The translations under genes were made by a program, and so were the position numbers. Shown in pieces: positions 45 to 43,648 of a DNA stretch of 64,000 bases. Positions within the stretch are counted from its first letter, which is position 1, and every line of letters begins with the position of its first letter. The DNA is from Parcubacteria group bacterium Gr01-1014_31. Its GTDB lineage: Bacteria; Patescibacteriota; Patescibacteriia; Buchananbacterales; GWA2-38-13. The notes under the pieces were generated by a model. It ran no database searches, had not been told where the DNA came from, and saw only the letters and a program-made list of their open reading frames with translations. The stretch is taken from NCBI GenBank assembly GCA_007376135.1, contig VMFR01000001.1:452360-516359 (forward strand). Direction: 5' to 3'.

Positions 45-602
45 TCATTGCCGCAACGTGACGGTACTGGTCAAATCCAGCGACGCGTTACGGCTCGGGT
101 CGCCGCCGGGGTTCAAGGTCTGCATGGAGATCTCCAGCCGCACGCTCTCGGGGCTGCCGGGTCGCGTCATATCCGTGAACACCAGCGAAGTAACCGTTAC
201 CAGGTCACCGGTCAGAGCGACCGGGCTGCCGCCGCCGACCGCGGCGCGCAGAAAACGCACCTCCACATCGCCGCCGCCAATGCTTACCGTGGTGGTGGCC
301 GTGTCGAACAGGATATCGCGTGCCGTCCCCGGATAATCCAAGGACAGCACCCCGGGATGCACCCCGAACCTCGAGGCGCCGGTTTGCACGCCAGCTGCCC
401 CCCGCAGCTCCTCTTCCATCCTGCGCACTGCCAGATGCGCGTTCTGCTGGGCCTCCCGCAGGGCGGTGCTACTCACCTGTGCGGAAAGCACCTGCCACAG
501 CAGGTCGAACCCCGCGACCAAAACGACCGCCACCAAGGCAAGCGCCAGCGTCGCTTCCACCAGCGTGAACCCTGCACGCCGCGGCAATCGCTTAAAAATC
601 AT
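45..602 (-). CDS. type IV pilin-like / pseudopilin with prepilin-type N-terminal cleavage-methylation domain
   Basis: N-terminus RAGFTLVEATLALALVAVV (prepilin G-F-T-L-x-E motif plus hydrophobic helix). Overlaps the upstream gene by 11 nt. Confidence 0.6.
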   Translation of the reverse strand: MIFKRLPRRAGFTLVEATLALALVAVVLVAGFDLLWQVLSAQVSSTALREAQQNAHLAVRRMEEELRGAAGVQTGASRFGVHPGVLSLDYPGTARDILFDTATTTVSIGGGDVEVRFLRAAVGGGSPVALTGDLVTVTSLVFTDMTRPGSPESVRLEISMQTLNPGGDPSRNASLDLTSTVTLRQ

Positions 603-2478
603 AGAATACGCTCACGTCTTCAAGCACCGGGGCTACCGTCGGATCAAAGGTCTGCAGGTAGGCGCGTAACTGTATCCACCGCGCGCCGCTGGCTCCCGGG
701 TCAAGGGTGACGGTTTGCCCCGGGACGGTGTACGGCGCGCTGGCGGTCCCATCCACGCCGGCCCAGCGGGCGGCCGCAAGGTGGGCGGCGGTATCGGCGG
801 TGCGCAGCAGGAACTGCACCGTGCCGGTCCCTTGCCGGCTCCACTGCAGCGTGGTGTAGGCGGTCGTGCTGGTCTGGGTGTCGAACGGTGCCGACGTGAA
901 CGTGCCGCGCGGAGCAAAGGTCGCCGTCGCGCCCCCGCGGACGGCAGTTACTTCCGCCCCGTTGGCGCGCGAGATGGCGTAGGCGAACGCCCCATACGCG
1001 CATACGCTGTTGACCGTCGAAGAGCCGGCGAGATTGACGTTGCTTTGCGCCAGCGTGCCAAGATCGATGGCGACCAGTTCGCGGCTGCCAGCATCGGTCG
1101 CGACAAAGGCGTAACGCCCCTCCACCGCGACCTGCAGGGCGTTGGTGTCCAACTCCGCAACGCTCAACGGCGACGTCGGGATGGCGCCGGGCACCGTTGC
1201 ATCATAGACGTAAAACTCGGCGCCGCTGTCCTGGCGCTTGACGACGTACAACCGGTTGCCGACGGCCAGCACGTCGCTGGCATTCCCGTTGCCGCCGATG
1301 TTCAGCTGCTGCACCACGGCGTAGTCCGCCAAGCGTACGATCACGACCTCCTCGCTGTTCCCGTCGGTCGCCACATACGCGAAACGTCCGTCCGCAGAAA
1401 GCGCGACGGCGTTGCTATTAAACCCGATCTCGGCGGTACCCAATGGCGTTCCCGGCAGGCTGGCGGGTGTGGTGATATCAATGGCGAAGAATTCCGGGTC
1501 CCCGCCATCGGCATCGGTCACCAGGTAGGCGACCGTCCCGCTGGCAGTAACGTCGTTCGCATTCGCATTCGTGCCGGGCGTGTTCCAGGACGAAAGCTGA
1601 ACACCGTCGGACAACCGGGCGACCATCATTTCCTGCCCATTCTGGCTGGTCGCAAAGTAGGCGTGAGCCGCCTGCACCGCCAGTCCGTTGGCGTCCTCGC
1701 CGATCTCGGCGGTCGCCACGGCATACAGCGCGGTCGTGGTTGCGCTGATGTCGGCCAGGTCGTACCCATAGAGCTCCGGCCGACCGCTCCCGCGCGCGTC
1801 GGTCGCCACGTACAGCACGTCGGCAACCGGGTCAACGGTGCAGTCGCTGGCATCTTCGACGCCGCCGATATCGACGGTGTGCGCGCTGACTGCCGCAGCC
1901 CAGTTGCCCTCGGCCGCCAACTGTAATTCCCCGTCATCGGTGACGGTGACCTGCAGGCTGTTACGCCGGCCCGCCGTAAAATCCGCCGTAACGTCGTGCA
2001 GCCACCGCTTGAGCGACCACTGCGTCAGCAGGGTCGTGAGCGTTACCGACTGCGGCCCGCTCAGCGTCAACCAGCTGACCGCAGCGGTCACATACCGCGA
2101 CGAGGGATCTATGCTGGCGCCTGCGTCCGTCGCTTCGGCCAGCGCTCCGGTGCCGCCCGCAAGGCGGTAGACGGGCCCCACCTGGACCTTACGGGTGTAG
2201 CCGCCGACGGTTTCCTGGGTGCCGGAGAACGCCCACGCGCCGCCCCCGGCGGTCAATCCATGGTCGCCGACCGCGAGGTCGAGGAACCGATGGTCGCGGA
2301 TGCTCCGGGCCGCTTCCAACCCTTCCACGGCGAACGCCCGCGCCTGTAGCATCCTGCCCTGGCGCTGTTCATCGGTCGTTGCTCCAAGAGCGACGGTGAG
2401 AACCGCCGATGCGACCACGGTGAAAATGCCGAACGCCAGCAATGCCTCGATTGCGGAGAATCCCTTGCGCAGCGGCAT
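592..2478 (-). CDS. prepilin-type N-terminal domain protein fused to LVIVD-like repeat beta-propeller (putative pilus-associated adhesin)
   Basis: N-terminus KGFSAIEALLAFGIFTVV (prepilin-like). The body has about 7 repeats of [AL]Y[VL][AV]TDA..G...[VI].D[IL] resembling LVIVD repeats. Confidence 0.5.
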   Translation of the reverse strand: MPLRKGFSAIEALLAFGIFTVVASAVLTVALGATTDEQRQGRMLQARAFAVEGLEAARSIRDHRFLDLAVGDHGLTAGGGAWAFSGTQETVGGYTRKVQVGPVYRLAGGTGALAEATDAGASIDPSSRYVTAAVSWLTLSGPQSVTLTTLLTQWSLKRWLHDVTADFTAGRRNSLQVTVTDDGELQLAAEGNWAAAVSAHTVDIGGVEDASDCTVDPVADVLYVATDARGSGRPELYGYDLADISATTTALYAVATAEIGEDANGLAVQAAHAYFATSQNGQEMMVARLSDGVQLSSWNTPGTNANANDVTASGTVAYLVTDADGGDPEFFAIDITTPASLPGTPLGTAEIGFNSNAVALSADGRFAYVATDGNSEEVVIVRLADYAVVQQLNIGGNGNASDVLAVGNRLYVVKRQDSGAEFYVYDATVPGAIPTSPLSVAELDTNALQVAVEGRYAFVATDAGSRELVAIDLGTLAQSNVNLAGSSTVNSVCAYGAFAYAISRANGAEVTAVRGGATATFAPRGTFTSAPFDTQTSTTAYTTLQWSRQGTGTVQFLLRTADTAAHLAAARWAGVDGTASAPYTVPGQTVTLDPGASGARWIQLRAYLQTFDPTVAPVLEDVSVFYDF

Positions 2479-2488
2479 AGTCAGCAGG

Positions 2489-2971
2489 CTACGGCGCGTT
2501 GACCGCCCCGGCGGCGTTCACCCGCAGCTCAAAAGTCTTGCCCTCGCTACTACGCAGCGTGACGCTGCCGATGTTCCCGGTGGTTCCCCGGCCGCGCGAA
2601 AATACCACCGCATCGCCGCCCGCCACCAAAATGGCATCGTAGGCGACCGACGGCGGCAAAACCGTTACCTGGTCATACGCCGCGTCCCGGGTCGCGAAGC
2701 TCGCCCCGCGGAACAGTACGAAACGATCGCTGGCGGCATCATCAAAATGCACTCCCCAGGCGCTGGCGCCGTCGCCGGCCATGGCGCGCGCCTGCGCTTC
2801 CCGCACGACGGCGGCCAATTCCTGGGCGACGGTATCCAGCCCGCTTTGCGACTGCCAGTTGAAGAACAACGGGACGGCCAGGGCCGCCAAGGTGACCATC
2901 AGGCCCAGTACGACCAGCAGCTCAATGAAGGTAAAACCGAACGACGCTCGCAGCGGAGTCTTTGATTCCAT
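2489..2971 (-). CDS. type IV pilin (PilA/pseudopilin family)
   Basis: MESKTPLRASFGFTFIELLVVLGLM: canonical prepilin leader + GFTxIELLVV. Start trimmed to the internal ATG (the 43 upstream codons carry the promoter/terminator). Confidence 0.65.
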   Translation of the reverse strand: MESKTPLRASFGFTFIELLVVLGLMVTLAALAVPLFFNWQSQSGLDTVAQELAAVVREAQARAMAGDGASAWGVHFDDAASDRFVLFRGASFATRDAAYDQVTVLPPSVAYDAILVAGGDAVVFSRGRGTTGNIGSVTLRSSEGKTFELRVNAAGAVNAP

Positions 2972-2990
2972 AGCGACGAAAATCGATTTG

Positions 2991-2999
2991 ATTATACCA
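2991..2999 (-). promoter_or_regulatory. extended -10 element TGGTATAAT upstream of pilin gene
   Basis: Minus strand reads TTTGTGGTATAAT about 20 nt upstream of the pilin ATG. The same CGGTTTGTGGTATAAT motif recurs at 4951-4959 upstream of the FG-GAP gene. Confidence 0.45.
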
Positions 3000-3030
3000 C
3001 AAAACCGCTGCCGCGATCCGCGGCAGCGGT
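3000..3030 (-). terminator. rho-independent terminator after FG-GAP/dockerin gene
   Basis: Perfect 12-bp inverted repeat ACCGCTGCCGCG atc CGCGGCAGCGGT followed by TTTT on the minus strand. The T-tract runs into the -10 box of the next gene. Confidence 0.6.
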
Positions 3031-3059
3031 TCAAGAAAGGCTTCGCGTCCAAAAAACGG

Positions 3060-4925
3060 TCAGTAGGCTTCGCACCCCAGCCTGTCGCTGGTCGGGTCAA
3101 CCCCCAAGGATGCCCCGGGGTACGGCGGCCGTGCGCCCCCCAGCAGCTGGAAACGGTTGATGAAATCCGCGTCCTTGAGATCCTTGACCCCGTCGTCGTT
3201 GGCGTCCATCGCGTCGTCGCAGTTCGGATACACGTAGCACAGCCCCTGGTTGACCTTGCACTGGAGGGAATTTGGCTGCTCGCAGCCGGGCGCGGCCGAC
3301 AGGCACGTCACGTGGTCTTTCACCGACTGTCCGTCGGCAATATCCACGCGGCCGTCGTGGTTGGCGTCGCCGCGGATGAACGCCACATCGGTGTGATTGG
3401 TATTGCCGAGGGCATACCCCGGCTGTGCCGCCGGCATCGCGTTGACCGCCTTGCTGTACGGGAACGTATACACCTGAACATTAAGCCGTCCCCGGGTGGT
3501 TCCATAATCAGAACGGAAATAATCAACGACGACTTCAAGCGTGCGGTCGCGGTTTAAATCGGCCACGGCGACACCGACGAGCGCGGAGTAGACAGGTGAT
3601 TGCCAGATCGCCACGCCGCGCTGGTCGAAAATAACGACTCGGGTCTCATCCATGCTCCCGACCGATTTTCGCACGATTGCGATCACCTCTTCGGCCGGCC
3701 CATCATCCATGTTGTGCAGTCCAACAATGGACACTCTATCTGCGGCGCCGTAACGCACCGTCAGCTGCGGCTGGCCGCTCAAAGAGAACGACTTTACGGT
3801 ATTATGGCCATCAGTGACTACTATTGCGTTGTTATGGACGACTGGGCGGCCAATTACCTCATCGTAGGTCGGCGTAATAGCGGCGACCCATAACGGGGTG
3901 CCATCCTGATCGAGGGCAACAAGCCTCCCATCGTCGTCGACATAGACCAACTCGGTATACAAATCGCTGTCGACGTTCGCCACAGCAACCTCGGACGACG
4001 CACCGCTGCGGCTCCACAGTCTTTTCCCGTTACCATCAATGACAAAGAACGTTGAGAGATTATTCGCAACGATCTGATGCCGCCGGCTTTCCACATCCTG
4101 CAGCTGAGCGGCGACGGGGGCGATCGACCCGCCGGCAAACTCCCAGATCTGCGCTCCTTCAGGGCTGAACGCCACAGTTTTCTGACGTTCAGGGTTACCA
4201 TTGGTAGCGACAACTTCCAAACGGTCATCACCGTCTAAATCCATGACGACCGGTATCAGATACGAGCCCCCCGCCGACCAAAGTTTTCGCCCGCTGGCAC
4301 CGTCCAGCGCCACCAACCCGGCATTCGTAGTGCCAAATGCGGCGTACACCACCTCCTGCGTGCCATTGCGGTCAAGGTCGGCGACCACCGGAGAACGGTA
4401 CACGGCCCGGCCGATGGCGTCCGCACGCCACAACTCACGGCCATTGGAAGAGATCACCACGAGCTCATACTGGTCGGATTCGCCCGCCAGGAGCACTTCG
4501 AGCTGTCCATCGCCGTTCACATCCGCGACCACCGGGTGCGGGGAGTACACCGAGCTGCCATCGGCACCCTGGAAAGACCACAATGGCCGAGCCACTTCCT
4601 GGCAGCTCGCGGTGCAACCCACGCCCGGCGGGTCGCACTGCTCGCTTCCCTCCACCAGACCATTGCCGCACACGGCCGTGTTCACGTTGACGTTGGTATT
4701 GCCGAAGTTGGTGATGGTGCCGTAGTTCAGCCCGCTATTCACCGCGGTTCCAAGCGAAGCCATCCGGAAACGGCCGGGATATAAGCCCTTGGCCACGTTG
4801 ACACCCAGCAGCGCCGCATAAAATCCGCCGGCCACGGGCAGCACCGTCAACGCAACGAGGGTCAAAAATGCGGTTGCGACAACTGGCTTGGTGCCGGTCT
4901 GCGTTTCCAAGAATGGACGTAGCAT
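3060..4925 (-). CDS. secreted FG-GAP repeat protein with N-terminal Cys-rich repeat and C-terminal dockerin-like Ca-binding repeats
   Basis: Motifs DLDGDDRLEVV and DLNRDRTLEVVVD (FG-GAP). C-terminus has DANHDGRVDIADGQ and DANDDGVKDLKDAD (dockerin-like DxNxDGxxxxxD x2). VCGNGLVEGSEQCD is a Cys-rich repeat. The track start 4952 lies inside the putative -10 box, so the start is placed at the internal ATG at 4925. Confidence 0.5.
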   Translation of the reverse strand: MLRPFLETQTGTKPVVATAFLTLVALTVLPVAGGFYAALLGVNVAKGLYPGRFRMASLGTAVNSGLNYGTITNFGNTNVNVNTAVCGNGLVEGSEQCDPPGVGCTASCQEVARPLWSFQGADGSSVYSPHPVVADVNGDGQLEVLLAGESDQYELVVISSNGRELWRADAIGRAVYRSPVVADLDRNGTQEVVYAAFGTTNAGLVALDGASGRKLWSAGGSYLIPVVMDLDGDDRLEVVATNGNPERQKTVAFSPEGAQIWEFAGGSIAPVAAQLQDVESRRHQIVANNLSTFFVIDGNGKRLWSRSGASSEVAVANVDSDLYTELVYVDDDGRLVALDQDGTPLWVAAITPTYDEVIGRPVVHNNAIVVTDGHNTVKSFSLSGQPQLTVRYGAADRVSIVGLHNMDDGPAEEVIAIVRKSVGSMDETRVVIFDQRGVAIWQSPVYSALVGVAVADLNRDRTLEVVVDYFRSDYGTTRGRLNVQVYTFPYSKAVNAMPAAQPGYALGNTNHTDVAFIRGDANHDGRVDIADGQSVKDHVTCLSAAPGCEQPNSLQCKVNQGLCYVYPNCDDAMDANDDGVKDLKDADFINRFQLLGGARPPYPGASLGVDPTSDRLGCEAY

Positions 4926-4950
4926 AAACAAAATGGTTAACCTTGGCGAC

Positions 4951-4959
4951 ATTATACCA
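4951..4959 (-). promoter_or_regulatory. extended -10 element TGGTATAAT upstream of FG-GAP gene
   Basis: GGTTTGTGGTATAAT on the minus strand, about 25 nt upstream of ATG 4925. Shares the motif with the pilin promoter. Confidence 0.4.
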
Positions 4960-5023
4960 CAAACCGCACCCCCCCAACTACCCCCGCGATAAACGAAAAA
5001 GACCCGGCATCACTGGGTGCTTT

Positions 5024-5054
5024 TTCCATGGCGGGGGCGGTAGGAATCGAAGTC
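5024..5054 (-). pseudogene. 31-nt exact duplicate of the tRNA-Trp 3' end (T-loop/acceptor + 6-nt trailer); tRNA fragment
   Basis: tttttccatggcgggggcggtaggaatcgaa is identical to 5226-5256. The upstream T-stem partner is not conserved (ACGAC vs CCTAC), so it is not a functional tRNA. Confidence 0.6.
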
Positions 5055-5202
5055 GTCGATCCAATAGATCTTCTCCTCATAGGGGCTTCCGCCCCTCTGG
5101 CGTTCGTCCCGCAATAGGCGGAACGAACGGTCACCCCCGGCAATGCGAGGGAGCTACGCTCCCCCGCCACCCCCCTCGTTCGATCCCTCAATTCTTTCAC
5201 GC

Positions 5203-5231
5203 GAAAAAATATCCCTTCAGGGATATTTTTT
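5203..5231 (-). terminator. rho-independent terminator downstream of tRNA-Trp
   Basis: AAAAAATATCCCT tca GGGATATTTTTT: perfect 13-bp palindromic hairpin flanked by A/T runs. Confidence 0.7.
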
Positions 5232-5234
5232 CCA

Positions 5235-5308
5235 TGGCGGGGGCGGTAGGAATCGAACCCACGCAAACGGTTTTGGAGACCGCTGTACTACCATTATACG
5301 ACGCCCCC
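5235..5308 (-). tRNA. trnW: tRNA-Trp (anticodon CCA)
   Basis: Hand-folded. Acceptor GGGGGCG/CGCCCCC, D-stem GTAT/GTAC, anticodon stem GCGGT/ACCGT, loop CUCCAAA, T-arm GTGGG-TTCGATT-CCTAC, discriminator G, CCA encoded. Resembles E. coli tRNA-Trp. Confidence 0.85.
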
Positions 5309-5330
5309 GCGGCCGCTTACGCGGTCGTCC

Positions 5331-5486
5331 CTATTTGGTTTCCTTGTGCCCGGTGTGCTTGCGGCAGTGCTCGCAGTACTTGCGCAGCTGGAGACGGTTC
5401 TTCAGCGTCTTTTTGTTCTTGCGCGAGTAGTAGTTGACGCGACGACAGTCGACGCACTCGAGTTTGATGAGATTGTCTTGGCTCAT
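5331..5486 (-). CDS. rpmG: 50S ribosomal protein L33
   Basis: 51-aa ORF MSQDNLIKLECVDCRRVNYYSRKNKKTLKNRLQLRKYCEHCRKHTGHKETK, C4 zinc-ribbon L33 signature. Below the 60-aa cutoff of the ORF track. Confidence 0.85.
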   Translation of the reverse strand: MSQDNLIKLECVDCRRVNYYSRKNKKTLKNRLQLRKYCEHCRKHTGHKETK

Positions 5487-5500
5487 AAGAATCTTGGATC

Positions 5501-5572
5501 AGCTGGGGGTGGGGGTCGAACCCACAACCTATAGTTTACAAAACTATTGCTCTACCATTGAGCTACCCCAGC
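5501..5572 (-). tRNA. tRNA-Thr (anticodon TGT)
   Basis: Acceptor GCTGGGG/CCCCAGC, D-arm GCTC-AATGGTA-GAGC, anticodon stem ATAGT/ACTAT with loop TTTGTAA, T-arm GTGGG-TTCGACC-CCCAC. No encoded CCA. Confidence 0.8.
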
Positions 5573-5654
5573 AAACTCGTCTGGTGAGTGAATAGCGCGC
5601 CCGCAAGGCGTGGTTTCGTTTTGTTAAGTGCGTGTTGTGTTTACTCAAGAGGAC

Positions 5655-5741
5655 TGGTGGGCAGGCCAGGATTCGAACCTGGGTAGCCATTACGGCGCCT
5701 GATTTACAGTCAGGTGCAATTGACCGCTCTGCCACCTGCCC
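5655..5741 (-). tRNA. tRNA-Tyr (anticodon GTA), long variable arm
   Basis: GGGCAGG...GCAG-AGCGGTCAATT-GC, anticodon loop CTGTAAA, variable arm of 16 nt, T-arm CAGG-TTCGAAT-CCTGG, CCA encoded. Confidence 0.85.
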
Positions 5742-5744
5742 AAG

Positions 5745-5987
5745 TTAACCATGAACCGTCCTCCGGAATGCCTCGCCGCCCTTATAACTCTTTAACTGCA
5801 TTTCGCGACGGTACGCTGCGGCTTTTGTTTCAAAGAATTCCTTGTAGACCATGATCCACGGTCGCCAAGCCTTGGTCGACCGCACCTCGCCGCAGTTATG
5901 CTGACTGAGGCGTGTCCGCCAGTCTGCGGCATGACCGATGTAATGCCGGCCATTCTGGGAACTCTGCAACACATATACCCAGCTCAT
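5745..5987 (-). CDS. GIY-YIG nuclease family protein (UPF0213/YhbQ-like, stand-alone URI domain)
   Basis: MSWVYVLQSSQNGRHYIGHAADWRTRLSQHNCGE...WRPWIMVYKEFFETKAAAYRREMQLKSYKG matches the GIY-YIG core. GAGGGG Shine-Dalgarno sequence lies 6 nt upstream of the ATG. Confidence 0.7.
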   Translation of the reverse strand: MSWVYVLQSSQNGRHYIGHAADWRTRLSQHNCGEVRSTKAWRPWIMVYKEFFETKAAAYRREMQLKSYKGGEAFRRTVHG

Positions 5988-6078
5988 ATGGCCCCTCATC
6001 ATTGGGGAGGTCGGGTGCAATTTCCCGCCACCGAAATTTTCTTACCTAAGGTAGGCGGGACCCCGCCGAAGGCGGTGG

Positions 6079-6099
6079 GACCGCTCTGCCACCTGCCCA
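6079..6099 (-). pseudogene. 21-nt exact duplicate of the tRNA-Tyr 5' end (acceptor + D-stem); tRNA fragment
   Basis: gaccgctctgccacctgccca is identical to 5722-5742. Downstream sequence diverges into GC hairpins, so there is no complete cloverleaf. Confidence 0.6.
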
Positions 6100-6165
6100 C
6101 GGCGTGTGGTGGTAAAAGTACAGCGTCGGAGGGTTCCCCTCCGCCACTCGACTGAAGCCGTTGGT

Positions 6166-6220
6166 CGGATCTGAACCGGCGACCTACTCCTTACCCATAC
6201 TAGCACACCCCCCTGCCATC
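6166..6220 (-). pseudogene. degenerate copy of the 3' half of tRNA-Thr(GGT)
   Basis: About 45 nt matches tRNA-Thr(GGT) from the anticodon loop to the acceptor with 3-4 substitutions (TTCGAAT->TTCAGAT, GTCGG->GCCGG). The 5' half is unrelated. Confidence 0.5.
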
Positions 6221-6225
6221 GCCTT

Positions 6226-6298
6226 AGCCGTTGGTCGGATTCGAACCGACGACCTACTCCTTACCATGGAGTTGCTCTACCAACTGAGCTACAACGGC
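6226..6298 (-). tRNA. tRNA-Thr (anticodon GGT)
   Basis: Acceptor GCCGTTG/CAACGGC, D-arm AGCTCAGTTGGTAGAGC, anticodon stem ACTCC/GGAGT with loop ATGGTAA, T-arm GTCGG-TTCGAAT-CCGAC. Confidence 0.85.
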
Positions 6299-6305
6299 TT
6301 AGGTA

Positions 6306-6376
6306 ATGGCAGGGAGAGTTGTCTCCCTGCGGGAGATCACCCGAAGGGTGACTCTGCCAGCTGAGCTCCAACGGCA
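6306..6376 (-). ncRNA. tRNA-Thr 5'-half-like sequence fused to a GC-rich multi-hairpin element with mutually exclusive folds
   Basis: Minus strand starts GCCGTTGGAGCTCAGCTGGCAGAG (21/24 nt match to the tRNA-Thr 5' end), then CACCC-UUCG-GGUGA (UUCG tetraloop hairpin) and UCUCCC-GCA-GGGAGA. On the plus strand there is an alternative 9-bp hairpin GCAGGGAGA-GTTG-TCTCCCTGC. Confidence 0.35.
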
Positions 6377-6419
6377 CTGGACGACTGGCGGGGTCGGGAG
6401 GACAAAAAAGACTCCTGGA

Positions 6420-7256
6420 TTAGCGGAGCTCATCGATCTGCTGGCGCAAATCCTGGAGCTTGGCATTGTCCGGGTCGGCTGCCTTCAGCGCCTGCCAGGT
6501 CTTGTCGGCCAACGATCGGTCTTTCACTAGAATACTGATTTTTAGCAAAAAGTCAAGCATTCGCGGGTTGTCCGCATCGGCCGCCACGGCCTTCCTTGCA
6601 TTCTGCAGCGCCTGCGCCAGCTGCCCCAGTTCCTGGAACACCATGGCGAGATTCTGGTAGCACGCGGCCAGGCGCTGGGCCTGTCCCGCCTCCTTGGGCT
6701 GTACGGCCGCCAGGCGGCTGGCGCCGCGGCGCAGAAGTTTAACCAGGTAGGTGAACACCTCGCGCGCCTTGGCGAATTCCTTGGTCTCCAGATAAAGGTC
6801 GCCCAGCATTTCGTAGGCAGCAACATGGTGCTGGTTCAAGCCGATGGCCTTGATCAGGTGGTCTTCCGCCGCCGCGAAATCACCGCCTGAGCGCAGGCGC
6901 TGTGCATCCTGGATCAAGGCGGCAAGCGTACCGGTCAGGTCGCCGCTCGGCACCGGTTCGGGTTTGGGGCGCTGGTAACGCTGCTCCAGGTCCAATATCC
7001 GCCGGTACCTGCGCTTGACGAACCGCAGCAGGGCGGAAACGACCGGACGGCAAACGGCGGAAAGCCAGCGGCCAAACCCCTGCAACCGACGCCGCAGACG
7101 GTCGGCCAATAACCGCTGCTTCAGACGCAGTTCGCGTTCCGCCGGGATGGACGCGACATCCACACTCCTGGCCTGCGGGAGCTTGCGGCCCATGATCAAC
7201 AACACCACGGTCACGCTGACCAACAGCACGAAGATCGGAATGAGATCGTAGGCCAT
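6420..7256 (-). CDS. TPR repeat-containing membrane-anchored protein
   Basis: N-terminal TM helix. C-terminal half has TPR-like helical repeats (AYEMLGDLYLETKEFAKAREVF..., AACYQNLAMVFQELGQLAQALQNARKAV...). Confidence 0.5.
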   Translation of the reverse strand: MAYDLIPIFVLLVSVTVVLLIMGRKLPQARSVDVASIPAERELRLKQRLLADRLRRRLQGFGRWLSAVCRPVVSALLRFVKRRYRRILDLEQRYQRPKPEPVPSGDLTGTLAALIQDAQRLRSGGDFAAAEDHLIKAIGLNQHHVAAYEMLGDLYLETKEFAKAREVFTYLVKLLRRGASRLAAVQPKEAGQAQRLAACYQNLAMVFQELGQLAQALQNARKAVAADADNPRMLDFLLKISILVKDRSLADKTWQALKAADPDNAKLQDLRQQIDELR

Positions 7257-7315
7257 ACTTGCCGAAGTAACAAAATCGAGCGGCTCCCCTCCGCGCCGCC
7301 CCCAAGGGGCTTTCT

Positions 7316-8197
7316 CTAGCGGGATCTCGACACTGCCCGCCCGGCGCTGCCGAACACCTTTAATTTCCCTTCCACCACACGCTGCACGGCGAGCGTCGCC
7401 GGACCCAGGTAGGTACGAAGATCATACTGGCCGCGCTGCTTCCCCAGCGTGCGCCGCAACGACTGGGTAAACGCGATCCTCAACTCGGTATCCACGTTGA
7501 TGATGCGAATACCCCGCCGGACAGCGGCGCGGATCTGTACGGGCGCGACGCCCGATCCGCCGTGCAACACTAGGGGTACCTTGGCGACTTTAGCAATGGC
7601 CGAGATCCGCGGCAGGTCCAGCCGTTCACGGCCGCGGAACGCCCCGTGCAGGGTGCCCACCGACACCGCCAGTGTGTCCACGCCGGTCGCGCGCAGATAT
7701 TCGGCCACACCCGCGGGGTCGGTCAGATATTGGCGCGCTGCGGCAACGCCGCGCAATTTCGTCAGACCCTCCTTGCCGAAGATCACGCCCAGCTCGCCCT
7801 GCACCCACACCCCGGCCCGATGGGCGTAATCAACGGCCTGGTGGGTAGCGGCGATATTGTTCTCCAGCGGCTGCTCGCTGGCGTCGATATGCACGGAAGA
7901 AAACCCGGCATCCACGCACTCGCGTACCGCGGCGAAACTGCGGCCATGGTCGAAATGCAACGCTACCGGCACGTCCCCACCGACATGCCGAGAAACCGTC
8001 CGGATGACATCCGCGATCGGTTTGAGCTCGGCGTACTTGATGGTCTTTTCGGAGATCTGCACGATAACCGGCGACCGCAGATTGACGGCGGCGCGCACGA
8101 TCGCCAACGTCACCTCAAGGTTGACGGTATTGAACGCGCCCACGGCGTAGCGGCGCCGCACGGCGTCCTGCATGATGTCCTTAAGCGGTACCAGCAT
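7316..8197 (-). CDS. fbaA: class II fructose-1,6-bisphosphate aldolase
   Basis: Motifs VALHFDHG and LVLHGGSG, with GAFN at the N-terminus. Start trimmed to MLVPLKDIMQD (the ATG directly abuts an inverted-repeat element). Confidence 0.85.
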   Translation of the reverse strand: MLVPLKDIMQDAVRRRYAVGAFNTVNLEVTLAIVRAAVNLRSPVIVQISEKTIKYAELKPIADVIRTVSRHVGGDVPVALHFDHGRSFAAVRECVDAGFSSVHIDASEQPLENNIAATHQAVDYAHRAGVWVQGELGVIFGKEGLTKLRGVAAARQYLTDPAGVAEYLRATGVDTLAVSVGTLHGAFRGRERLDLPRISAIAKVAKVPLVLHGGSGVAPVQIRAAVRRGIRIINVDTELRIAFTQSLRRTLGKQRGQYDLRTYLGPATLAVQRVVEGKLKVFGSAGRAVSRSR

Positions 8198-8305
8198 ACC
8201 CAGTAAGACAACGGTCACCGCGTGACCTTTTCGTTATCTCTCGTAAAGTTATTCGCATATGGTTATATCACCGTGTTCGATCTGTCCGTTGTCCTACTGG
8301 GCATG
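8195..8305. repeat. IR-bracketed intergenic element E1 (terminal inverted repeats CATACCCAGTAAGACAAC / GTTGTCCTACTGGGCATG)
   Basis: 17/18-bp inverted repeats flank about 75 bp that contain the GGTCACGCGTGACC palindrome. The left repeat includes the fbaA ATG. The right repeat lies inside the 3' end of tpiA and encodes a C-terminal extension. Confidence 0.55.
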
Positions 8306-9069
8306 GGGTTGAGGGCGGCGGAAATGACCGCCAAGAACGTTGCGGCGTCCAAACTCGCGCTGCCCACCAGCACGCCGTGCAGGGTCGGCAGCTGCGTGAA
8401 CGACGCCACGTTGCTTGGATTGACGCTGCCGCCGTACACGATCTGCACCGAGCGCTGCAGCACGGCCGCGCCGTACAGGTCAATGATGATGTGCCGAATG
8501 ACCTCGGATGCGTACTGGACTTCGTCCGGGGTCGCCTCAATGCCGGTACCACCGGTGCTGATCGCCCACACCGGTTCGTAGGCGACCACCAACCGGTCGT
8601 CCGGCCCAAGCGTTACCCCTTGCAGCGCCGCCTGCAGTTGGCGGATGAGCACGTAATCTTTTTGGCTGCCGGAACGCTCCTGGTAATTTTCCCCAATACA
8701 CAGCACCGGCGTCAGCCCCGTACGCAGGGCCGCCTCCAGTTTCCGGTGCACCTGCCCGTCGGTTTCCTGCATGTGTTCCCGGCGCTCGGAATGCCCCAAA
8801 ATGACATACTGACAGTCCAGCTGGCGCAGATCGGCCGGCGAAACCTCGCCGGTGAATGCGCCCTGCGTTTCCCAAAAACAATCCTGCGCGCCAAGACGCA
8901 ACGTGCTGCCCTTCACGGCTGCCGCCACGTGCGCCAAGCTCAAGAACGTCGGGCACAAAACGACCTCAGTGCCCTGCGGCAAGTGCCGCGCGGACTTCAC
9001 CATCGCCTGCGCCAGCGCGACACTCTGCAGGACGTCCAATTTCATTTTCCAATTCGCGATGGCTAGCAT
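8263..9069 (-). CDS. tpiA: triosephosphate isomerase (about 15-aa C-terminal extension)
   Basis: Motifs NWKM, GHSERR, AYEPVWAISTG and YGGSV. Start trimmed to MLAIANWKMK. The last about 15 codons (NPMPSRTTDRSNTVI) are encoded by element E1. Confidence 0.85.
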   Translation of the reverse strand: MLAIANWKMKLDVLQSVALAQAMVKSARHLPQGTEVVLCPTFLSLAHVAAAVKGSTLRLGAQDCFWETQGAFTGEVSPADLRQLDCQYVILGHSERREHMQETDGQVHRKLEAALRTGLTPVLCIGENYQERSGSQKDYVLIRQLQAALQGVTLGPDDRLVVAYEPVWAISTGGTGIEATPDEVQYASEVIRHIIIDLYGAAVLQRSVQIVYGGSVNPSNVASFTQLPTLHGVLVGSASLDAATFLAVISAALNPMPSRTTDRSNTVI

Positions 9070-9071
9070 AC

Positions 9072-9605
9072 TCAATAGTATACACCGTCCGGAACAAACC
9101 AACCCAACAGGGCCGAACCGCTGTAGGTAACGGCCAGCATGATGCCGCCCGCGATCAGCAGCCCCAGCAGAATAAGCGGCAGCGCCCGGCGCGAAGGAAT
9201 GCCAAACAGCCAAGCGGCCAGCGACGCGGTCCACGCGCCGCTAAGCGGCAGTGGCAACGGGAAAGCGACGAACAGCAGCAGCGCGAATTCGCCGTACCGC
9301 TCATACTTCTGTGAGAACTTGCCGCGGGTCCGCGCAAACAGCCAGGAAAAGAAACGTTCGGCCAGCCTGGACCGGCGCTGTAGCCACCGTGAAACTGGTT
9401 CGGCCAAGGAAAGCACCAGCAGCGCGACCAGGAAACTCCCGGCGACCGCGCTCGAGAATGCCACGCCCGCCGGCAGCCGGTACTTCAGGATGGCGAATGG
9501 GATGGCGACGGACAGCTCCACCGATGGCACCATCGCGATAAGTGCGGTGCCCAACGGCGGCGGCAGCACGGCAACCCACGAGAAGAGGGCTTGGAAAAAA
9601 TTCAT
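9072..9605 (-). CDS. putative small multidrug export-family membrane protein (Sm_multidrug_ex/COG2426-like)
   Basis: Four predicted TM helices. ...VELSVAIPFAIL... and ...PLPLSGAWTASLAAWLFGI resemble PF06695. Start trimmed to MNFFQALF. Confidence 0.45.
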   Translation of the reverse strand: MNFFQALFSWVAVLPPPLGTALIAMVPSVELSVAIPFAILKYRLPAGVAFSSAVAGSFLVALLVLSLAEPVSRWLQRRSRLAERFFSWLFARTRGKFSQKYERYGEFALLLFVAFPLPLPLSGAWTASLAAWLFGIPSRRALPLILLGLLIAGGIMLAVTYSGSALLGWFVPDGVYY

Positions 9606-9633
9606 GCGGGAAAAGATCAGGTGAACACAAGGG

Positions 9634-9642
9634 AGTATACCA
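9634..9642 (-). promoter_or_regulatory. extended -10 TGGTATACT upstream of membrane protein gene
   Basis: Minus strand GCGTGGTATACTCCC about 30 nt upstream of ATG 9605. Confidence 0.3.
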
Positions 9643-9651
9643 CGCCCGTTG

Positions 9652-10560
9652 CTACCCGCCCAACGCCGGCCAACGGAAACTGGAAAACGTCCAGGCGGCG
9701 AGCTGCACGGCGTCCTGAAATCGGGCATCTGCGGACGGCGCACCCAGCACTGCCACGCTGACCTGGTGCCCCGCCTGCTCGAAGATCAACGCTACGTTGT
9801 ACCCGCTCTCGTCAAGATACCCGGTTTTGCCGCCGACGGGGAGCGGATTGCCGTTCTTGCGGCCCTGCTGGAGCAGAATGTTGGTGCTCTCCGCCGTCAC
9901 CCGCCGGCCGGTGTTGCGTATGGTCAAACGGTAGCCGGACAGCTGCACTGCCGCGGAAATCATCGGATCGCTGAATGCCGCGCGCACGAGTTTTGCCGCG
10001 TCGGCGGCATGCGCGACGTTGCCGGGCTCCAACCCCGCAGGATCGACGAATCGGGTATCCGCCAGACCGAGCGCCTTGGCTTTCTTATTCATGGCCGCAA
10101 CGAACGCCTGGGGGGTCAGGCCGCTGGAACGCGCCAAGGCAACGGCGGCTTCATTGGAGGATGCAACCAGCATGACCTCGAAAAGGTCACGCACGCTGAC
10201 CTGGTCGCCGACCGAAAGTATCACCCGCCCGCCGCTACGGACATCCTCGGCCCGTAGCGTAACCAGCGCTTCCCAGTTCGGCTTCCGGTCGATGGCCACC
10301 AGCGCGGTCATCAATTTGGTGATGCTGGCGAGCGGGTGCGGCGCAACGCCCTCCCGCCGGTACAGCACGGCTCCGGAAGCCAAATCCACGACCGCTACCG
10401 CCAGGGCGTCCATCGCCGGCGGCGCGGCGGCCGGAGCCACCGCTGCCGGCGGGGAAACGGCCGGACGCACGGTCACCGCCGGCGCGGGCGGCAGGCCGGC
10501 GGTTACCGGCACGAACGCCGCGACCATCGCCGCCAGCAGGCGGGAAAACCACTGCCCCAT
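9652..10560 (-). CDS. D-alanyl-D-alanine carboxypeptidase (serine-type, PBP5/DacA-like)
   Basis: Motifs SITKLMT (SxxK), SSN and KTG. N-terminal Pro/Ala-rich signal region. Confidence 0.75.
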   Translation of the reverse strand: MGQWFSRLLAAMVAAFVPVTAGLPPAPAVTVRPAVSPPAAVAPAAAPPAMDALAVAVVDLASGAVLYRREGVAPHPLASITKLMTALVAIDRKPNWEALVTLRAEDVRSGGRVILSVGDQVSVRDLFEVMLVASSNEAAVALARSSGLTPQAFVAAMNKKAKALGLADTRFVDPAGLEPGNVAHAADAAKLVRAAFSDPMISAAVQLSGYRLTIRNTGRRVTAESTNILLQQGRKNGNPLPVGGKTGYLDESGYNVALIFEQAGHQVSVAVLGAPSADARFQDAVQLAAWTFSSFRWPALGG

Positions 10561-10563
10561 ACA

Positions 10564-11124
10564 TTAGGCCGCCGGTTTCACCGCCTCCGCCTCCAAGAGA
10601 CGGCCGACGGTATCCAGCGTATGGAGCCGCTGGTAATCCGGCAGCTGTTCGACGGTGGCGTACCCCAAATGTTTGAGAAAATCCAAGCTGACGACGTAGC
10701 GGATGATACCGACCTGCCGGTCGGCCTGCGCCTCTATTAAGCCCCGCATCATCAGGTTGCGGAGGATAATGGCGCAGTTCACGCCGCGGATCTGCTCCAG
10801 CTCGGCGCGCGTGACCGGCCCGCGGTACGCAATGATGGTAAGGGTTTCCAGCTGCGCACGCGTCAGTTCACCCGTGGTCTCCTGTTTCAAGAACCGCTGC
10901 ACTGCAGGAGCGGCACCCCCGGCGGTGACCAGCTGCACCTGACCGCCAACCCGCTGCAACAGGATACCGCCGTCCTGGCGCTGATCGTACTGCTGGGTCA
11001 AAGCAATAACTGCCTGCTCGGTATCCTTCGGGCTGGCTTCGGCCAAAGTTGCCAGCTCGCGCACCGTCATCGGACGGTTCGAGACCAGTAGTAGCGCTTC
11101 AATGGTCGCGGAAAGATTGGCCAT
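10564..11124 (-). CDS. scpB: segregation and condensation protein B
   Basis: ScpB winged-helix pair (…LTRAQLETLTIIAYRGPVTRAELEQIRGVN…). Adjacent to scpA. Confidence 0.8.
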   Translation of the reverse strand: MANLSATIEALLLVSNRPMTVRELATLAEASPKDTEQAVIALTQQYDQRQDGGILLQRVGGQVQLVTAGGAAPAVQRFLKQETTGELTRAQLETLTIIAYRGPVTRAELEQIRGVNCAIILRNLMMRGLIEAQADRQVGIIRYVVSLDFLKHLGYATVEQLPDYQRLHTLDTVGRLLEAEAVKPAA

Positions 11125-11136
11125 ATGGGGTGAGCT

Positions 11137-11838
11137 CTAAATGCGTTCAATGACAATATCCTTGAACAGCTCGTCCTGGCGGACGCTGACAGTACGCTGC
11201 TTGGCCAGCTCCAACACCGCCAGAAAACTGACGATGACCTCCATCCGGCTCTTGCTGGTCTTCAGAAGTTCGGAGAAACGCAACTTGGTCTCCTTCCAGA
11301 TCAGCTCGCGCAGCTGAAGGATCCGCTCATGCACCGTGATCCCGTTGGCCAGAACGCCTTTTTGCAGCGGCAAAAGCGGCGGCAGCGCGGAAACGACCCC
11401 CAGGAACATCTGGTGCAGGCGCGCGGCGGTCAGGTTGGGCGGCGGTGTAAATTCGGTCGGTTCCATTGGAACGAGCAGCCGTTCACGGGCGAAGCCGAAC
11501 TGCTTTTTCCGCAGCCGCGCGTTGACCACCAACGCCGCCAGGGCGAATTCCCGGTACAGCTTCAATTGCCGTTCCAGCTCCTGCCCCTCATCGGCGTCGG
11601 GCGGCTGCAGGTACGGCAAGAGCGTCCGCGATTTGATGAGGAGTAGCCTGGCAGCAACCGCCAGAAAATCGGCCAGGTCATTGGCCGACATCTGGTCGCC
11701 GATCTGCTGCAGCGTCAGCAGGTACTGCTCGGTCACCGCCGCCAGCGACAGCTGCGTGATGTCCAGCTTGTGCTCTTCAATGAGCTGCAGCAGTAAATCC
11801 AGCGGCCCCTCGAATTGGGTCGTTTTAATGGAATGCAT
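11137..11838 (-). CDS. scpA: segregation and condensation protein A
   Basis: N-terminus FEGPLDLLLQLIEEHKLDITQLSLAAVTEQYL is the classic ScpA kleisin. Confidence 0.8.
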   Translation of the reverse strand: MHSIKTTQFEGPLDLLLQLIEEHKLDITQLSLAAVTEQYLLTLQQIGDQMSANDLADFLAVAARLLLIKSRTLLPYLQPPDADEGQELERQLKLYREFALAALVVNARLRKKQFGFARERLLVPMEPTEFTPPPNLTAARLHQMFLGVVSALPPLLPLQKGVLANGITVHERILQLRELIWKETKLRFSELLKTSKSRMEVIVSFLAVLELAKQRTVSVRQDELFKDIVIERI

Positions 11839-11841
11839 GTA

Positions 11842-12375
11842 TCACCACTTTGAGCCCCAACGTTCCTCCATGATTCCCCACGTAATCGATTCCCACAACG
11901 AAAGAGTAAACCACAATCCAAATAGTACGACAATGAAAAGAATGGCTGCACCAAGTCCATAAATCAATCGATACCGAACCCACGGAAACCGAGAGAGTCT
12001 GACCGCAACCACCCAGTACAAGACAGATGCTAAAACCATAAATACTGTTCCAACGAGATAGAACGTCCGATGATGGTAAATGTAATCATTGGGAATGACG
12101 CAAGCGTAAGCCAAGCCGGAAGGACCCGGAATGTTCGGTACCCAACTGACACGGTCAGGGGCGAACGGATTGAAGTAATTGTAGACTGCCTCACGGTGTA
12201 ACTGCCCACCGTTCTGATCAACGCAACCATCATACTCAACTGGCAAGAAGCTGAGCGGTATACTAAGCAAACCCAACACGCCAACAGCAACACTGAGCTT
12301 CAATAGCAAGGGCCTATTTGGACGACGCTGACCAGCTGTCTGTTTACTAACTTTAACCACTGCCATCATAGGCAC
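11842..12375 (-). CDS. hypothetical membrane protein (lower GC than surroundings)
   Basis: Four or five hydrophobic segments, no recognisable motif. GC is roughly 45% against a roughly 68% background. Confidence 0.35.
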   Translation of the reverse strand: MPMMAVVKVSKQTAGQRRPNRPLLLKLSVAVGVLGLLSIPLSFLPVEYDGCVDQNGGQLHREAVYNYFNPFAPDRVSWVPNIPGPSGLAYACVIPNDYIYHHRTFYLVGTVFMVLASVLYWVVAVRLSRFPWVRYRLIYGLGAAILFIVVLFGLWFTLSLWESITWGIMEERWGSKW

Positions 12376-12393
12376 GATCCGTCAACCGAGTTA

Positions 12394-43258: not shown

Positions 43259-43358
43259 CCCGTTAGAAAATTACTGTTCCGCTGGTCAAACGCTCCAACG
43301 ATTTCCAGCATCCAGAAATATTACAGAACACATTATTCGCAAAGTTTTCTAACGGGGC
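43259..43358. mobile_element. MITE-like 100-bp element with perfect 13-bp terminal inverted repeats (CCCCGTTAGAAAA) and a 4-bp CGGG target duplication
   Basis: Removing the element and one CGGG restores TCGGGGTGCGGGGAGTCGAACC, identical to the 3' end of the adjacent tRNA-Pro. The element interior is AT-rich. Confidence 0.5.
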
Positions 43359-43407
43359 GGGGAGTCGAACCGCCGCCGCATGCACCCTTCACCCCACACC
43401 TTTCCTC
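43359..43407 (-). pseudogene. degenerate tRNA-Pro-like copy (acceptor/T-arm retained, D/anticodon region deleted), disrupted by the MITE-like element
   Basis: Shares GGGGAGTCGAACC and GGGTGCATG with tRNA-Pro. The T-stem is mispaired (GGCGG vs CCCCG). Confidence 0.45.
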
Positions 43408-43478
43408 TCGGGGTGCGGGGAGTCGAACCCCGTCTCCATGCACCCCATGCACGTGTACTGCCGGTATACTACACCCCG
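43408..43478 (-). tRNA. tRNA-Pro (anticodon GGG)
   Basis: Acceptor CGGGGTG/CACCCCG, D-arm GTAT-ACCGGCA-GTAC, anticodon stem CGTGC/GCATG with loop ATGGGGT (G37), T-arm CGGGG-TTCGACT-CCCCG, discriminator A. Confidence 0.8.
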
Positions 43479-43648
43479 AAAGGAAAGGTGTGGGGCAATC
43501 GCACGTGGACTACCACTACCCCATACCCCGAAAAAAGGCGGGTGAAAAACGAACTTGCCCGCGATGCCGCACACCTGTGAAGTAAAAACGTGAAATGTAC
43601 GAATACCCACTCTACCGCATCGGTGCGCTCCCGGCAAGGCGTCCGGCG

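Follow-up and report, generated by a model that had tools for sequence, protein, structure and literature searches.

The nearest described relatives of the GIY-YIG nuclease cassettes that appear to occupy tRNA genes in a 64,000-nt stretch of the Parcubacteria group bacterium Gr01-1014_31 genome (contig VMFR01000001.1, positions 452,360 to 516,359 of the forward strand; this whole stretch is called the window, and positions are counted from its first nucleotide) are the GIY-YIG insertions in rRNA genes of the candidate phyla radiation (CPR) (PMC11270868) and SegB of phage T4 (PMC2330249). The rRNA genes of CPR bacteria harbour GIY-YIG-encoding insertions which are neither group I nor group II introns and are located mostly at the top or the base of stem-loops (Tsurumaki et al., 2024; PMC11270868). 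The two kinds of insertion share the bacterial group, a location in structural-RNA genes, the non-intron nature and the encoded nuclease, while the elements considered here differ in having tRNA genes as hosts, in the conserved double hairpins and pseudo-halves of their anatomy and in a rescue by a carried replacement tRNA rather than by a tolerated or removed insert. tRNA genes are not mentioned in the rRNA study (PMC11270868), and the full-text literature searched gave no account of GIY-YIG cassettes in tRNA genes of CPR bacteria.

SegB is a free-standing GIY-YIG homing endonuclease encoded in the T4 tRNA gene cluster (PMC2330249; PMC13096335) and is reported to cleave within the tRNA region of a rival genome and to be co-inherited with the flanking tRNAs (PMC2330249); a free-standing GIY-YIG gene amid tRNAs is thus common to both systems. 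The protein encoded in the window differs from SegB as an 80-aa catalytic domain of the UPF0213/SLX1 type that scores below the cut-off of TIGR01453, and SegB belongs to a phage, whereas no relatives of the cassette were found on the viral contigs searched. As an enzyme of the I-TevI type, SegB possesses a DNA-binding region, and neither split pseudo-halves nor hairpin junctions are known from its system. The mobile open reading frame (ORF) of the Allomyces atp6 type brings along a part-copy of its host gene, which keeps that gene whole while the part it displaces degenerates, so that an endonuclease ORF with a replacement gene end offers an analogy. Yeast mitochondrial GC clusters are short GC-rich palindromic double-hairpin elements which are reported to be mobile and optional (PMC4478555). 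These organellar systems differ in residing in eukaryotic organelles and in having mostly protein-coding targets, and their likeness is one by analogy. In prokaryotes, partial tRNA copies are commonly left by integrative elements. Such non-functional copies beside intact tRNAs, which are reported by van der Gulik et al. (PMC9897764) to be mis-categorised as tRNA genes, resemble what is found here, where in difference to them no integrase, sub-kilobase units, copied 5' halves, hairpin junctions and a recurrent nuclease ORF are observed.

With moderate confidence, we consider that the tRNA operon of the window (Thr(GGT), Tyr, Thr(TGT), rpmG, Trp) has been invaded repeatedly by small selfish tRNA-gene cassettes carrying a replacement tRNA. 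A complete cassette would consist of a conserved GC-rich double hairpin, a gene for a GIY-YIG protein of about 80 residues and a replacement of the target tRNA, whole or as its 5' part. It would be lodged in one of the loops encoded by the resident tRNA gene, most often that of the anticodon, and so leave the old gene as a pseudo-5'-half and often also a pseudo-3'-half, between which the ORF and the intact tRNA would lie on the same strand; the cell would stay viable through the cassette-borne replacement. The best reading of the window is that tRNA-Tyr represents an ORF-bearing cassette and that tRNA-Thr(GGT) and a distant tRNA-Pro represent ORF-less nested remnants. Recombination between the repeated halves could produce remnants of this kind, as suggested by the variation of forms in other genomes. 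An optional 206-bp unit behind tRNA-Trp is probably a further remnant and the least secure of these assignments.

The sequence-only reading, with which this analysis began, had described four intact tRNAs and rpmG accompanied by partial tRNA copies, and ARAGORN, Rfam and repeat searches recover all of them, the intact tRNAs concordantly with Rfam scores of 62-75 bits. The 31-nt exact repeat of tRNA-Trp (5257-5227 = 5051-5021; E 1.8e-12, as all E-values of window repeats computed for the 64-kb window) extends from the T loop through the 3' end and 8 nt of trailer, with a start-to-start distance of 206 nt. The likewise described exact copy of the tRNA-Tyr 5' end comprises 21 nt (5742-5722 = 6099-6079), and after a GC double hairpin of 56 nt at the would-be D loop a second block follows that matches tRNA positions 21-33. 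The degenerate 3' half of tRNA-Thr(GGT) was also found as described (6195-6156, 37/40, E 1e-10), as was the 5' part, which matches at 21/24 positions and is weak alone (E 0.39) but stands in register and is fused to two GC hairpins. What had been overlooked is that the Thr(GGT) copies are nested round the intact gene, in the order pseudo-5' part, two hairpins, leader arm, intact tRNA, trailer arm and pseudo-3' half, that the Tyr copy resumes past its hairpin, and that a tRNA-Pro gene has the same layout. The tRNA-Pro unit, ~37 kb from the tRNA/rpmG cluster and without ORF, reads pseudo 5' half (43530-43496), arm CCCCACACCTTTCC, intact tRNA-Pro(GGG) (43479-43407), arm GGAAAGGTGTGGGG and pseudo 3' half (43391-43353). 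Its two 14-nt arms are complementary, and its pseudo-halves look like a different tRNA-Pro allele. Breakpoints fall into the anticodon loop for Thr, Tyr and Pro and into the T loop for Trp. For tRNA-Thr(TGT), the repeat search of the window gave no partial copies.

None of the partial copies is called as a tRNA by ARAGORN, with or without intron search, or by Rfam at E up to 10, and the sole extra Rfam match, a permuted tmRNA of 16 bits, is at chance level. The question raised at the outset, whether the copies fold, is thereby answered in favour of the intact genes only, and intron-containing tRNAs or known RNAs are rejected as their identity. Split or permuted tRNA genes are equally unsupported by the ARAGORN and Rfam calls, although such arrangements were not searched explicitly.

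Six metagenome contigs carry an identical L33 protein and DNA that is 93-99% identical to the window (L-numbers designate the compared loci or contigs from metagenomes or GTDB species genomes). Three of them (L002-L004) are independent assemblies from other samples with the same arrangement, which is therefore not an assembly artefact. Exactly the 206-bp unit between the 31-nt Trp repeats is missing in L001, where tRNA-Trp is directly followed by terminator hairpin 2, and L002-L004 possess an extra 36-nt double hairpin, TCACCGCCTCCGGCGGGATCCCGCAGTATGCGGTGA, nested in the first hairpin of the pseudo-Tyr copy, which the window does not have. These differences indicate that the 206-bp unit and the 36-nt hairpin were gained or lost precisely and recently. 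The GIY-YIG ORF is kept in 4/4 related contigs that reach its site (L001-L004); between window and L002 it shows three nucleotide differences, two of them amino-acid-changing, which are too few for judging selection. The pseudo-3' half of tRNA-Thr(GGT), diverged in the window, matches the intact gene at 40/40 positions in L002.

A wider comparison was based on an rpmG-centred sample of 80 GTDB species genomes and an ORF-centred sample of 80 metagenome loci, the latter found with a Tyr-type protein sub-alignment and therefore biased towards the KSYKGG subfamily. Around rpmG many exact partial tRNA copies occur, and small GIY-YIG ORFs are present in about 15/80 species, at Tyr, Trp or Glu. These ORFs lie nearly always on the tRNA strand and end 7-67 nt before the intact gene, and upstream of them stands an exact copy of the 5' part of the adjoining tRNA, for example Trp 1-36/37 in L017, L075 and L084, Tyr 1-23/24 in L052 and L079, and Glu 1-22 in L058. 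A same-strand tRNA starts within 150 nt downstream of 68 of the 78 evaluable ORFs and within 150 nt upstream of six more, compared with 4.9% at random positions of these loci. Counted over all ORF matches near a tRNA, 27 have Tyr as their target, 33 one of four Ser isoacceptors and 7 Pro, and Thr, Glu and Cys are targeted as well; for ORFs without downstream tRNA, no other structured-RNA target was found. The nearest neighbour of an ORF has the same target tRNA in 49/69 cases (~14 expected).

In 52/69 evaluable pairs the ORF is preceded by a mostly exact copy of the 5' part of its paired tRNA, usually as positions 1-35, hairpins of 35-70 nt and positions 36-46/49 abutting the ATG, and 22 pairs have in addition a downstream 3' copy from position 36 to the end. 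The layout is stereotyped and recurs in many Patescibacteria, with a pseudo-5'-half, a GC double hairpin, an 80-aa ORF, the intact tRNA and sometimes a pseudo-3'-half. In its full form (L158, L114, L168) tRNA positions 1-35, the double hairpin, positions 36-4x, the ORF and the intact tRNA are followed by a short trailer, positions 31-35, the same double hairpin and positions 36 to the 3' end. A mirror form with intact tRNA, ORF and hairpin-bearing 3' copy exists in L092, an ORF-less nested form at Tyr in L022, and degenerate ORF fragments in L094, L097 and L130. Units also occur in series: L084 (4264-5009) has two identical 336-nt units (Trp 1-36, hairpin, GIY ORF) before tRNA-Trp, L098/L103 (2501-3168) a tandem pair of GIY ORFs before tRNA-Ser(CGA), and L143 (1-591) repeated 74-nt tRNA-Pro pseudo-copies with the D arm replaced by a GC hairpin, one hairpin-bearing copy of which ARAGORN calls a tRNA. 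The GIY-YIG stop codon ends 3 nt ahead of tRNA-Tyr in the window; in the cassettes of L017 (4274-4525) and L058 (3822-4091) the frame overlaps the beginning of the intact tRNA, inside which its stop codon lies, and the same is seen in L125, L139, L142, L162 and L166.

Presence and absence at a conserved target are documented in two pairs of sister species. L016 has a single tRNA-Trp and L017 identical flanks plus 318 nt (Trp 1-37, hairpin, ORF), while L058 differs from L060 by a 338-nt insert at tRNA-Glu; in addition, L012 possesses a simple Thr-Tyr pair where in L022 the Tyr is nested and a Thr pseudo-3' half carries a hairpin. The earlier proposal that the GIY-YIG gene arrived as a small mobile insertion gains support from these sites, as it does from the occurrence of the same ORF family in many genomes, with position and orientation unchanged, beside Tyr, Ser, Pro, Trp, Glu, Thr and Cys tRNAs. 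The comparison with relatives that had been suggested bears this out for homologous cassettes, which show presence and absence, and not for the window's Tyr cassette, which is present in all four contigs reaching it.

Which of the tRNA copies is the newcomer can be approached through the sister alleles. The pseudo-3' half of L022 agrees with the sister's allele at 44/45 positions and the intact gene at 42/45; in L019 the values are 34/38 and 29/37. In L114, the pseudo-5' acceptor strand reads GGGCAGG and that of the intact gene GGGTGGA, which pairs with its own 3' strand. As all three loci point the same way, we lean to the view that the pseudo-halves are the old resident gene and that the intact tRNA came with the insert.

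The double hairpins share a module, CCACCGCC-N3-5-GGCGGGG followed by T[GC]CCGCC-N3-4-GGCGG[CG]A, which is placed at a fixed site of the anticodon loop (at the slash: Tyr ACTG/TAAA; Ser CTTG/AAAA and CTCG/AAAA; Pro TTTG/GGAG) and is identical at both sides of a cassette. Related double hairpins are located in the D loop (after position 14) and in the T loop (TTCG/AAT) of pseudo-copies, and the D-loop insert of the window's pseudo-Tyr is a member of this family. Within 0.93 Mb of loci 54 modules were counted, 51 of them within 500 nt of an intact tRNA. One recurrent site, ..GG/CGGGG, hosts a hairpin within a hairpin in L158, L097/L102, L133 and the window relatives L002-L004, and pseudo-copies of tRNA-Trp contain TCGCGA-centred palindromes with TCCA on either side. 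These nested and loop placements, the TCCA-flanked palindromes and the 36-nt polymorphism indicate that the double hairpins are themselves mobile; as short palindromes in many copies with presence/absence polymorphism they resemble miniature inverted-repeat transposable elements (MITEs) or repetitive extragenic palindromic (REP) sequences. A hairpin census of the window is uninformative, since in this GC-rich genome chance hairpins are scattered throughout the window, which consists mostly of long ORFs. As a separate observation, successive pseudo-3' halves of tRNA-Trp stand 3' of the intact gene, two each in L031 and L052 and one in L019 (5841-5940). An anticodon-loop palindrome, in most cases TCGCGA-centred, is found in both copies of L052 and in the first copy of L031 and L019, and some of the Trp pseudo-3' copies represent another allele than the intact gene, as though former resident genes had been replaced one after the other.

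The strongest competitor, although unlikely, is a hairpin-ended transposon, in which the double hairpins are the element ends and the SLX1-like nuclease cuts there and at hairpin loops of the target DNA (the D, anticodon and T loops of tRNAs, or other hairpins), with cut-and-paste or copy-and-paste movement without homology and the short hairpins as non-autonomous derivatives; it may coexist with cassette homing. Lone double hairpins in all three tRNA loops, their nesting, the precise 36-nt indel, the TCCA-flanked palindromes and the same hairpin at either end of full cassettes speak for it, as does the fact that the closest solved protein relatives are structure-specific SLX1 nucleases. One hairpin family is moreover found at Tyr, Ser and Pro targets, from which target switching without homology would follow. 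Weighing against such a transposon, a nuclease alone cannot join DNA, so that host ligation or repair is required, a target-site duplication is not consistent and the 36-nt insert has none, hairpins were seen only in tRNA pseudo-copies in a sample that is tRNA-centred, and no excised forms were observed.

The nuclease itself was characterised by profile and structure comparison. PF01541 matches residues 1-67 with 56.1 bits (gathering cut-off 22.6; E 4.6e-15), and in 14 cassette ORFs Y5, Y16, G18, R26, H30, E62 and K66 are invariant, with E50 in at least 90%; the conserved Tyr of GIY, Tyr of YIG, Arg and Glu are those which we take to be the catalytic residues of the fold. Against PDB, the profile of these 14 ORFs finds 1zg2 (1.4e-16), 1ywl (2.2e-13), SLX1 7cq2 (3.8e-7) and I-TevI (3.5e-3), the UPF0213 proteins BH0048 (1.4e-16) and EF2693 ranking ahead of the structure-specific endonuclease SLX1. 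An AlphaFold model (predicted local distance difference test, pLDDT, 92) is placed by Foldseek with 1zg2 and SLX1 (probability 1.0, template modelling (TM) score about 0.7), I-TevI being weak, so that the matches rank as in the profile search. The closest relatives in sequence and predicted fold are thus UPF0213 proteins and the SLX1 nuclease domain, and the protein looks active because its catalytic residues are invariant and its model is confidently SLX1/UPF0213-like. I-TevI-type enzymes consist of an N-terminal catalytic domain, a linker and a C-terminal DNA-binding domain, and eukaryotic SLX1 has a C-terminal RING/zinc-finger domain and the partner SLX4. With 80 aa and a domain at residues 1-67, the cassette protein has no room for a second domain of either kind, RING/zinc-finger or DNA-binding, and does not show the architecture of eukaryotic SLX1. 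TIGR01453, the I-TevI-type family, scores 16.8 bits against a cut-off of 56.05, and PHROG homing-endonuclease families match at E ~2e-3 over residues 1-35 only. The wider family comprises 14,075 clusters at 50% identity (E up to 1e-3); the exact window protein is not on record, and a word-indexed homologue search with it gave 4 matches only.

The intact, conserved and always tRNA-co-oriented ORF is also what would be expected of a host gene, and we regard it as quite improbable, and less probable than the hairpin-ended transposon, that the GIY-YIG protein is an RNA- or tRNA-processing or repair factor co-transcribed with tRNAs, the pseudo-copies being products of slippage, unequal crossing-over and gene conversion and the hairpins elements of RNA stability or processing. 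A prokaryotic Slx1-like protein is fused to a TrmH-like tRNA methyltransferase, from which an RNA role has been proposed (PMC1564403), and this would agree with such a function. UUCG- or GNRA-like loops, as are typical of stable RNA hairpins, occur in several of the hairpins, L084, L098 and L143 contain tandem arrays, and the Thr pseudo-3' half, identical to the intact gene in L002 and diverged in the window, suggests gene conversion. The sporadic spread, with the tRNAs concerned differing between genomes, is however difficult to reconcile with a host factor, as are the clean lack of the whole unit in sister species, the pseudo-halves and intact genes that can be different alleles, and the degenerate ORF fragments; slippage leaves the same hairpin and loop position in Tyr, Ser and Pro unexplained.

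Weakest, and very improbable in our estimation, is the reading of the copies as classic scars of integrase-mediated integration and excision that had been put forward from the sequence, namely as attL/attR remnants of since-deleted tRNA-attached integrative elements with the GIY-YIG gene as leftover cargo, for although breakpoints lie in the anticodon and T loops, where tRNA-targeting tyrosine integrases usually have their crossover, the Trp repeat spans 3' end and trailer as att repeats often do and the 206-bp loss in L001 resembles a clean excision, the units measure 0.17-0.36 kb instead of kilobases (the 3' repeats bound merely 206 bp for Trp and ~70 bp for Thr, and the Tyr repeat is a 5' part), 5' halves are copied as often as 3' halves, conserved GC double hairpins mark the junctions, the nuclease in fixed orientation is the sole recurrent gene, no unit contains an integrase, and independent deletions would have to yield the same architecture in dozens of lineages. 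The search for integrase genes suggested at the outset was negative as well: in a Pfam scan of 20 ORFs over positions ~45-16,400 and 37,600-46,700, which left out four ORFs of 104-130 aa, neither integrase nor transposase was detected within ~10 kb of either tRNA locus.

For the cassettes with a replacement tRNA, we infer a homing cycle in which the nuclease would break an empty tRNA gene at or close to its anticodon loop, or cut hairpin or cruciform DNA, and the break would be repaired from an occupied copy with the tRNA halves as homology arms. The hairpins would destroy the target within the pseudo-copies. The ORF would be expressed from the hijacked tRNA promoter, with which its fixed orientation fits, and the intact tRNA would be processed out of the co-transcript. 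Homing and hairpin-directed cutting may both operate, and the latter would account for hairpins that stand alone or nested and for the switch of targets between Tyr, Ser and Pro. More tentatively, and with a likelihood well short of even though slightly above that of the hairpin-ended transposon, the double hairpins and the 80-residue SLX1-like nuclease might form a new class of mobile element, in which a structure-specific nuclease, reduced to its catalytic domain and recognising folded DNA hairpins instead of a sequence, inserts hairpin-ended cassettes in the loops of tRNA genes or of other hairpins, the spare tRNA carried along lets the element survive, and CPR tRNA genes undergo serial replacement by alleles that move horizontally.

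Several observations weigh against the invasion of the operon by replacement-carrying cassettes. The 206-bp Trp unit has neither an ORF nor the conserved double hairpin and cannot be aligned to analogous units. The window's own Tyr cassette shows no presence/absence among L001-L004, and its mobility is therefore read from homologous cassettes elsewhere. Nuclease function is predicted from sequence and model, with no DNA-binding domain that would confer sequence specificity, and as the intact inner tRNA retains the presumed target, a simple homing immunity is left unexplained. The allele comparisons depend on few differences (1 vs 3; 4 vs 8), the tracking of targets by ORF lineages could partly reflect vertical inheritance, and the viral contigs searched gave no relatives that would point to a vector.

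The features of the locus are collected in Table 1; every feature of the tRNA/rpmG locus is on the minus strand.

Table 1. Coordinates of intact genes, partial tRNA copies and hairpins in the window
Feature	Position	Strand	Evidence
Outer stem 5' arm CCGCCAGTCGTCCAGT, pairs with 6141-6155	6376..6391	-	inverted repeat, predicted fold
Pseudo 5' part of tRNA-Thr(GGT), positions 1-24, 21/24	6352..6375	-	repeat search; not called tRNA
Two 15-nt GC hairpins TCACCCTTCGGGTGA, TCTCCCGCAGGGAGA, fused to Thr pseudo 5' part	6322..6351	-	
Leader arm of tRNA-Thr(GGT), complementary to trailer arm	6299..6321	-	inverted repeat, 87% complementary
tRNA-Thr(GGT), intact, inner gene of nested unit	6299-6225	-	ARAGORN; Rfam 72.9 bits
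Trailer arm of tRNA-Thr(GGT), complementary to leader arm	6208..6225	-	inverted repeat
Pseudo 3' half of tRNA-Thr(GGT), anticodon loop to 3' end	6156..6196	-	repeat search
Outer stem 3' arm	6141..6155	-	inverted repeat
Pseudo 5' part A of tRNA-Tyr, 1 nt leader + positions 1-20, exact	6079..6099	-	E 1.8e-6
GC double hairpin in pseudo-Tyr D loop, CCACCGCCTTCGGCGGGG + TCCCGCC[24 nt]GGCGGGA	6023..6078	-	
Pseudo 5' part B of tRNA-Tyr, positions 21-33, 12/13; similarity ends at anticodon-loop start	6010..6022	-	
Small hairpin with Shine-Dalgarno-like GAGGGG few nt before ATG (putative role)	5992..6009	-	read from sequence
GIY-YIG nuclease gene, 80 aa, UPF0213/SLX1-like clade, catalytic domain only	5987-5745	-	PF01541 4.6e-15
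tRNA-Tyr(GTA), intact, immediately 3' of GIY-YIG ORF	5741-5655	-	ARAGORN, Rfam
tRNA-Thr(TGT), intact	5572-5501	-	ARAGORN, Rfam
rpmG (ribosomal protein L33)	5486-5331	-	PF00471, 3.4e-17
tRNA-Trp(CCA), intact	5308-5235	-	ARAGORN, Rfam
206-bp optional unit 3' of tRNA-Trp	5021..5226	-	empty site in L001; fold z = -5.5
Terminator-like hairpin 2	4994..5020	-	directly after tRNA-Trp in L001
Second nested unit, tRNA-Pro	43353..43530	-	ARAGORN, repeats, predicted fold

The leader and trailer arms of tRNA-Thr(GGT) form with the acceptor stem a 23-bp helix, and the TCACCC..GGGTGA type of hairpin fused to its pseudo 5' part is also found in L049 and L058. Leader-trailer complementarity is limited to some units, including Thr(GGT) and Pro of the window; as a general or cassette-specific trait it was rejected by a comparison of mean duplex energies, in which ORF-adjacent tRNAs (-8.5 kcal/mol), other tRNAs (-10.2) and shuffled controls (-8.6) showed no difference. 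Some tRNAs of L084, L019, L105, L107 and L109 lie in long leader-trailer helices, for example AAAACTGCCGA-TGAT-[tRNA-Trp]-TCGGCAGTTTT.

The 206-bp Trp unit is made up of terminator hairpin 1 (5233-5203), ~150 nt of GC hairpins and the 31-nt Trp copy (5051-5021). Units resembling it exist in other species, and it does not align with the analogous units of L036, L050, L056 and L079. The ~150-nt units downstream of tRNA-Trp at window 5052-5200 and in L056, L079 and L050 start with an inverted T-loop copy (GGAATCGAA or GGGATCGAA) and are on this ground described as bounded by inverted T-loop repeats; homology of these units across five species was rejected, as no alignment extends beyond the inverted T-loop motif GGAATCGAA and the tRNA 3' part.

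With respect to the neighbourhood, ORFs for an FG-GAP-repeat protein and a tetratricopeptide repeat (TPR) protein flank the cluster, and the Pfam-matched ORFs near both tRNA loci are housekeeping genes (class II aldolase, triosephosphate isomerase (TIM), ScpA/B, aspartyl-tRNA synthetase (AspRS), RecO, pyruvate phosphate dikinase (PPDK)), pilin-like or a transporter; several of the scanned ORFs have no Pfam match. Directly 3' of the tRNA cluster (45-4952, minus strand) there are an FG-GAP/PQQ-repeat protein of 630 aa, whose dockerin-like match is weak and below threshold, and also pilin-like ORFs, one with the Pfam N-terminal methylation motif and another with a prepilin-like N-terminus recognised by eye only. 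The tRNA-copy units contain no ORF except the GIY-YIG gene, and a sigma-70 promoter scan of 4850-6500 yielded zero matches. The window L33 shares no more than 78% identity with homologues from GTDB species genomes, its best matches being Patescibacteria (Falkowbacteria- and Uhrbacteria-type metagenome-assembled genomes, MAGs), among which the Thr-Tyr-Thr-rpmG-Trp cluster is conserved. Many of the closest rpmG records (L009, L011, L016 and others) are titled 'uncultured Gammaproteobacteria' (binchicken third-party annotation (TPA) assemblies); their L33 groups with Patescibacteria MAGs and most have some or all of the same tRNAs beside rpmG, so the titles look unreliable. In L043, tRNA-Trp is situated ~100 nt 3' of rpmG, resembling the window, as judged from the ARAGORN call and the coordinates of the rpmG match.

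tRNA genes are usually viewed as passive landing pads for integrase-borne islands. The evidence collected here suggests another kind of parasite, in which a minimal nuclease gene interrupts a tRNA gene and supplies the substitute itself. Such a system would be a free-standing nuclease cassette with gene replacement, and there is a realistic chance that its hairpins and mini-nuclease constitute a new class of mobile element. If the cassette reading is true, one frequent origin of tRNA fragments and of odd tRNA calls in Patescibacteria genomes would be explained and the UPF0213 family would gain a concrete role in one lineage, while a nuclease of 80 residues together with a 35-nt hairpin would represent a very small structure-directed DNA-targeting system. 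Essential tRNA genes would then be exchanged horizontally in these reduced genomes.

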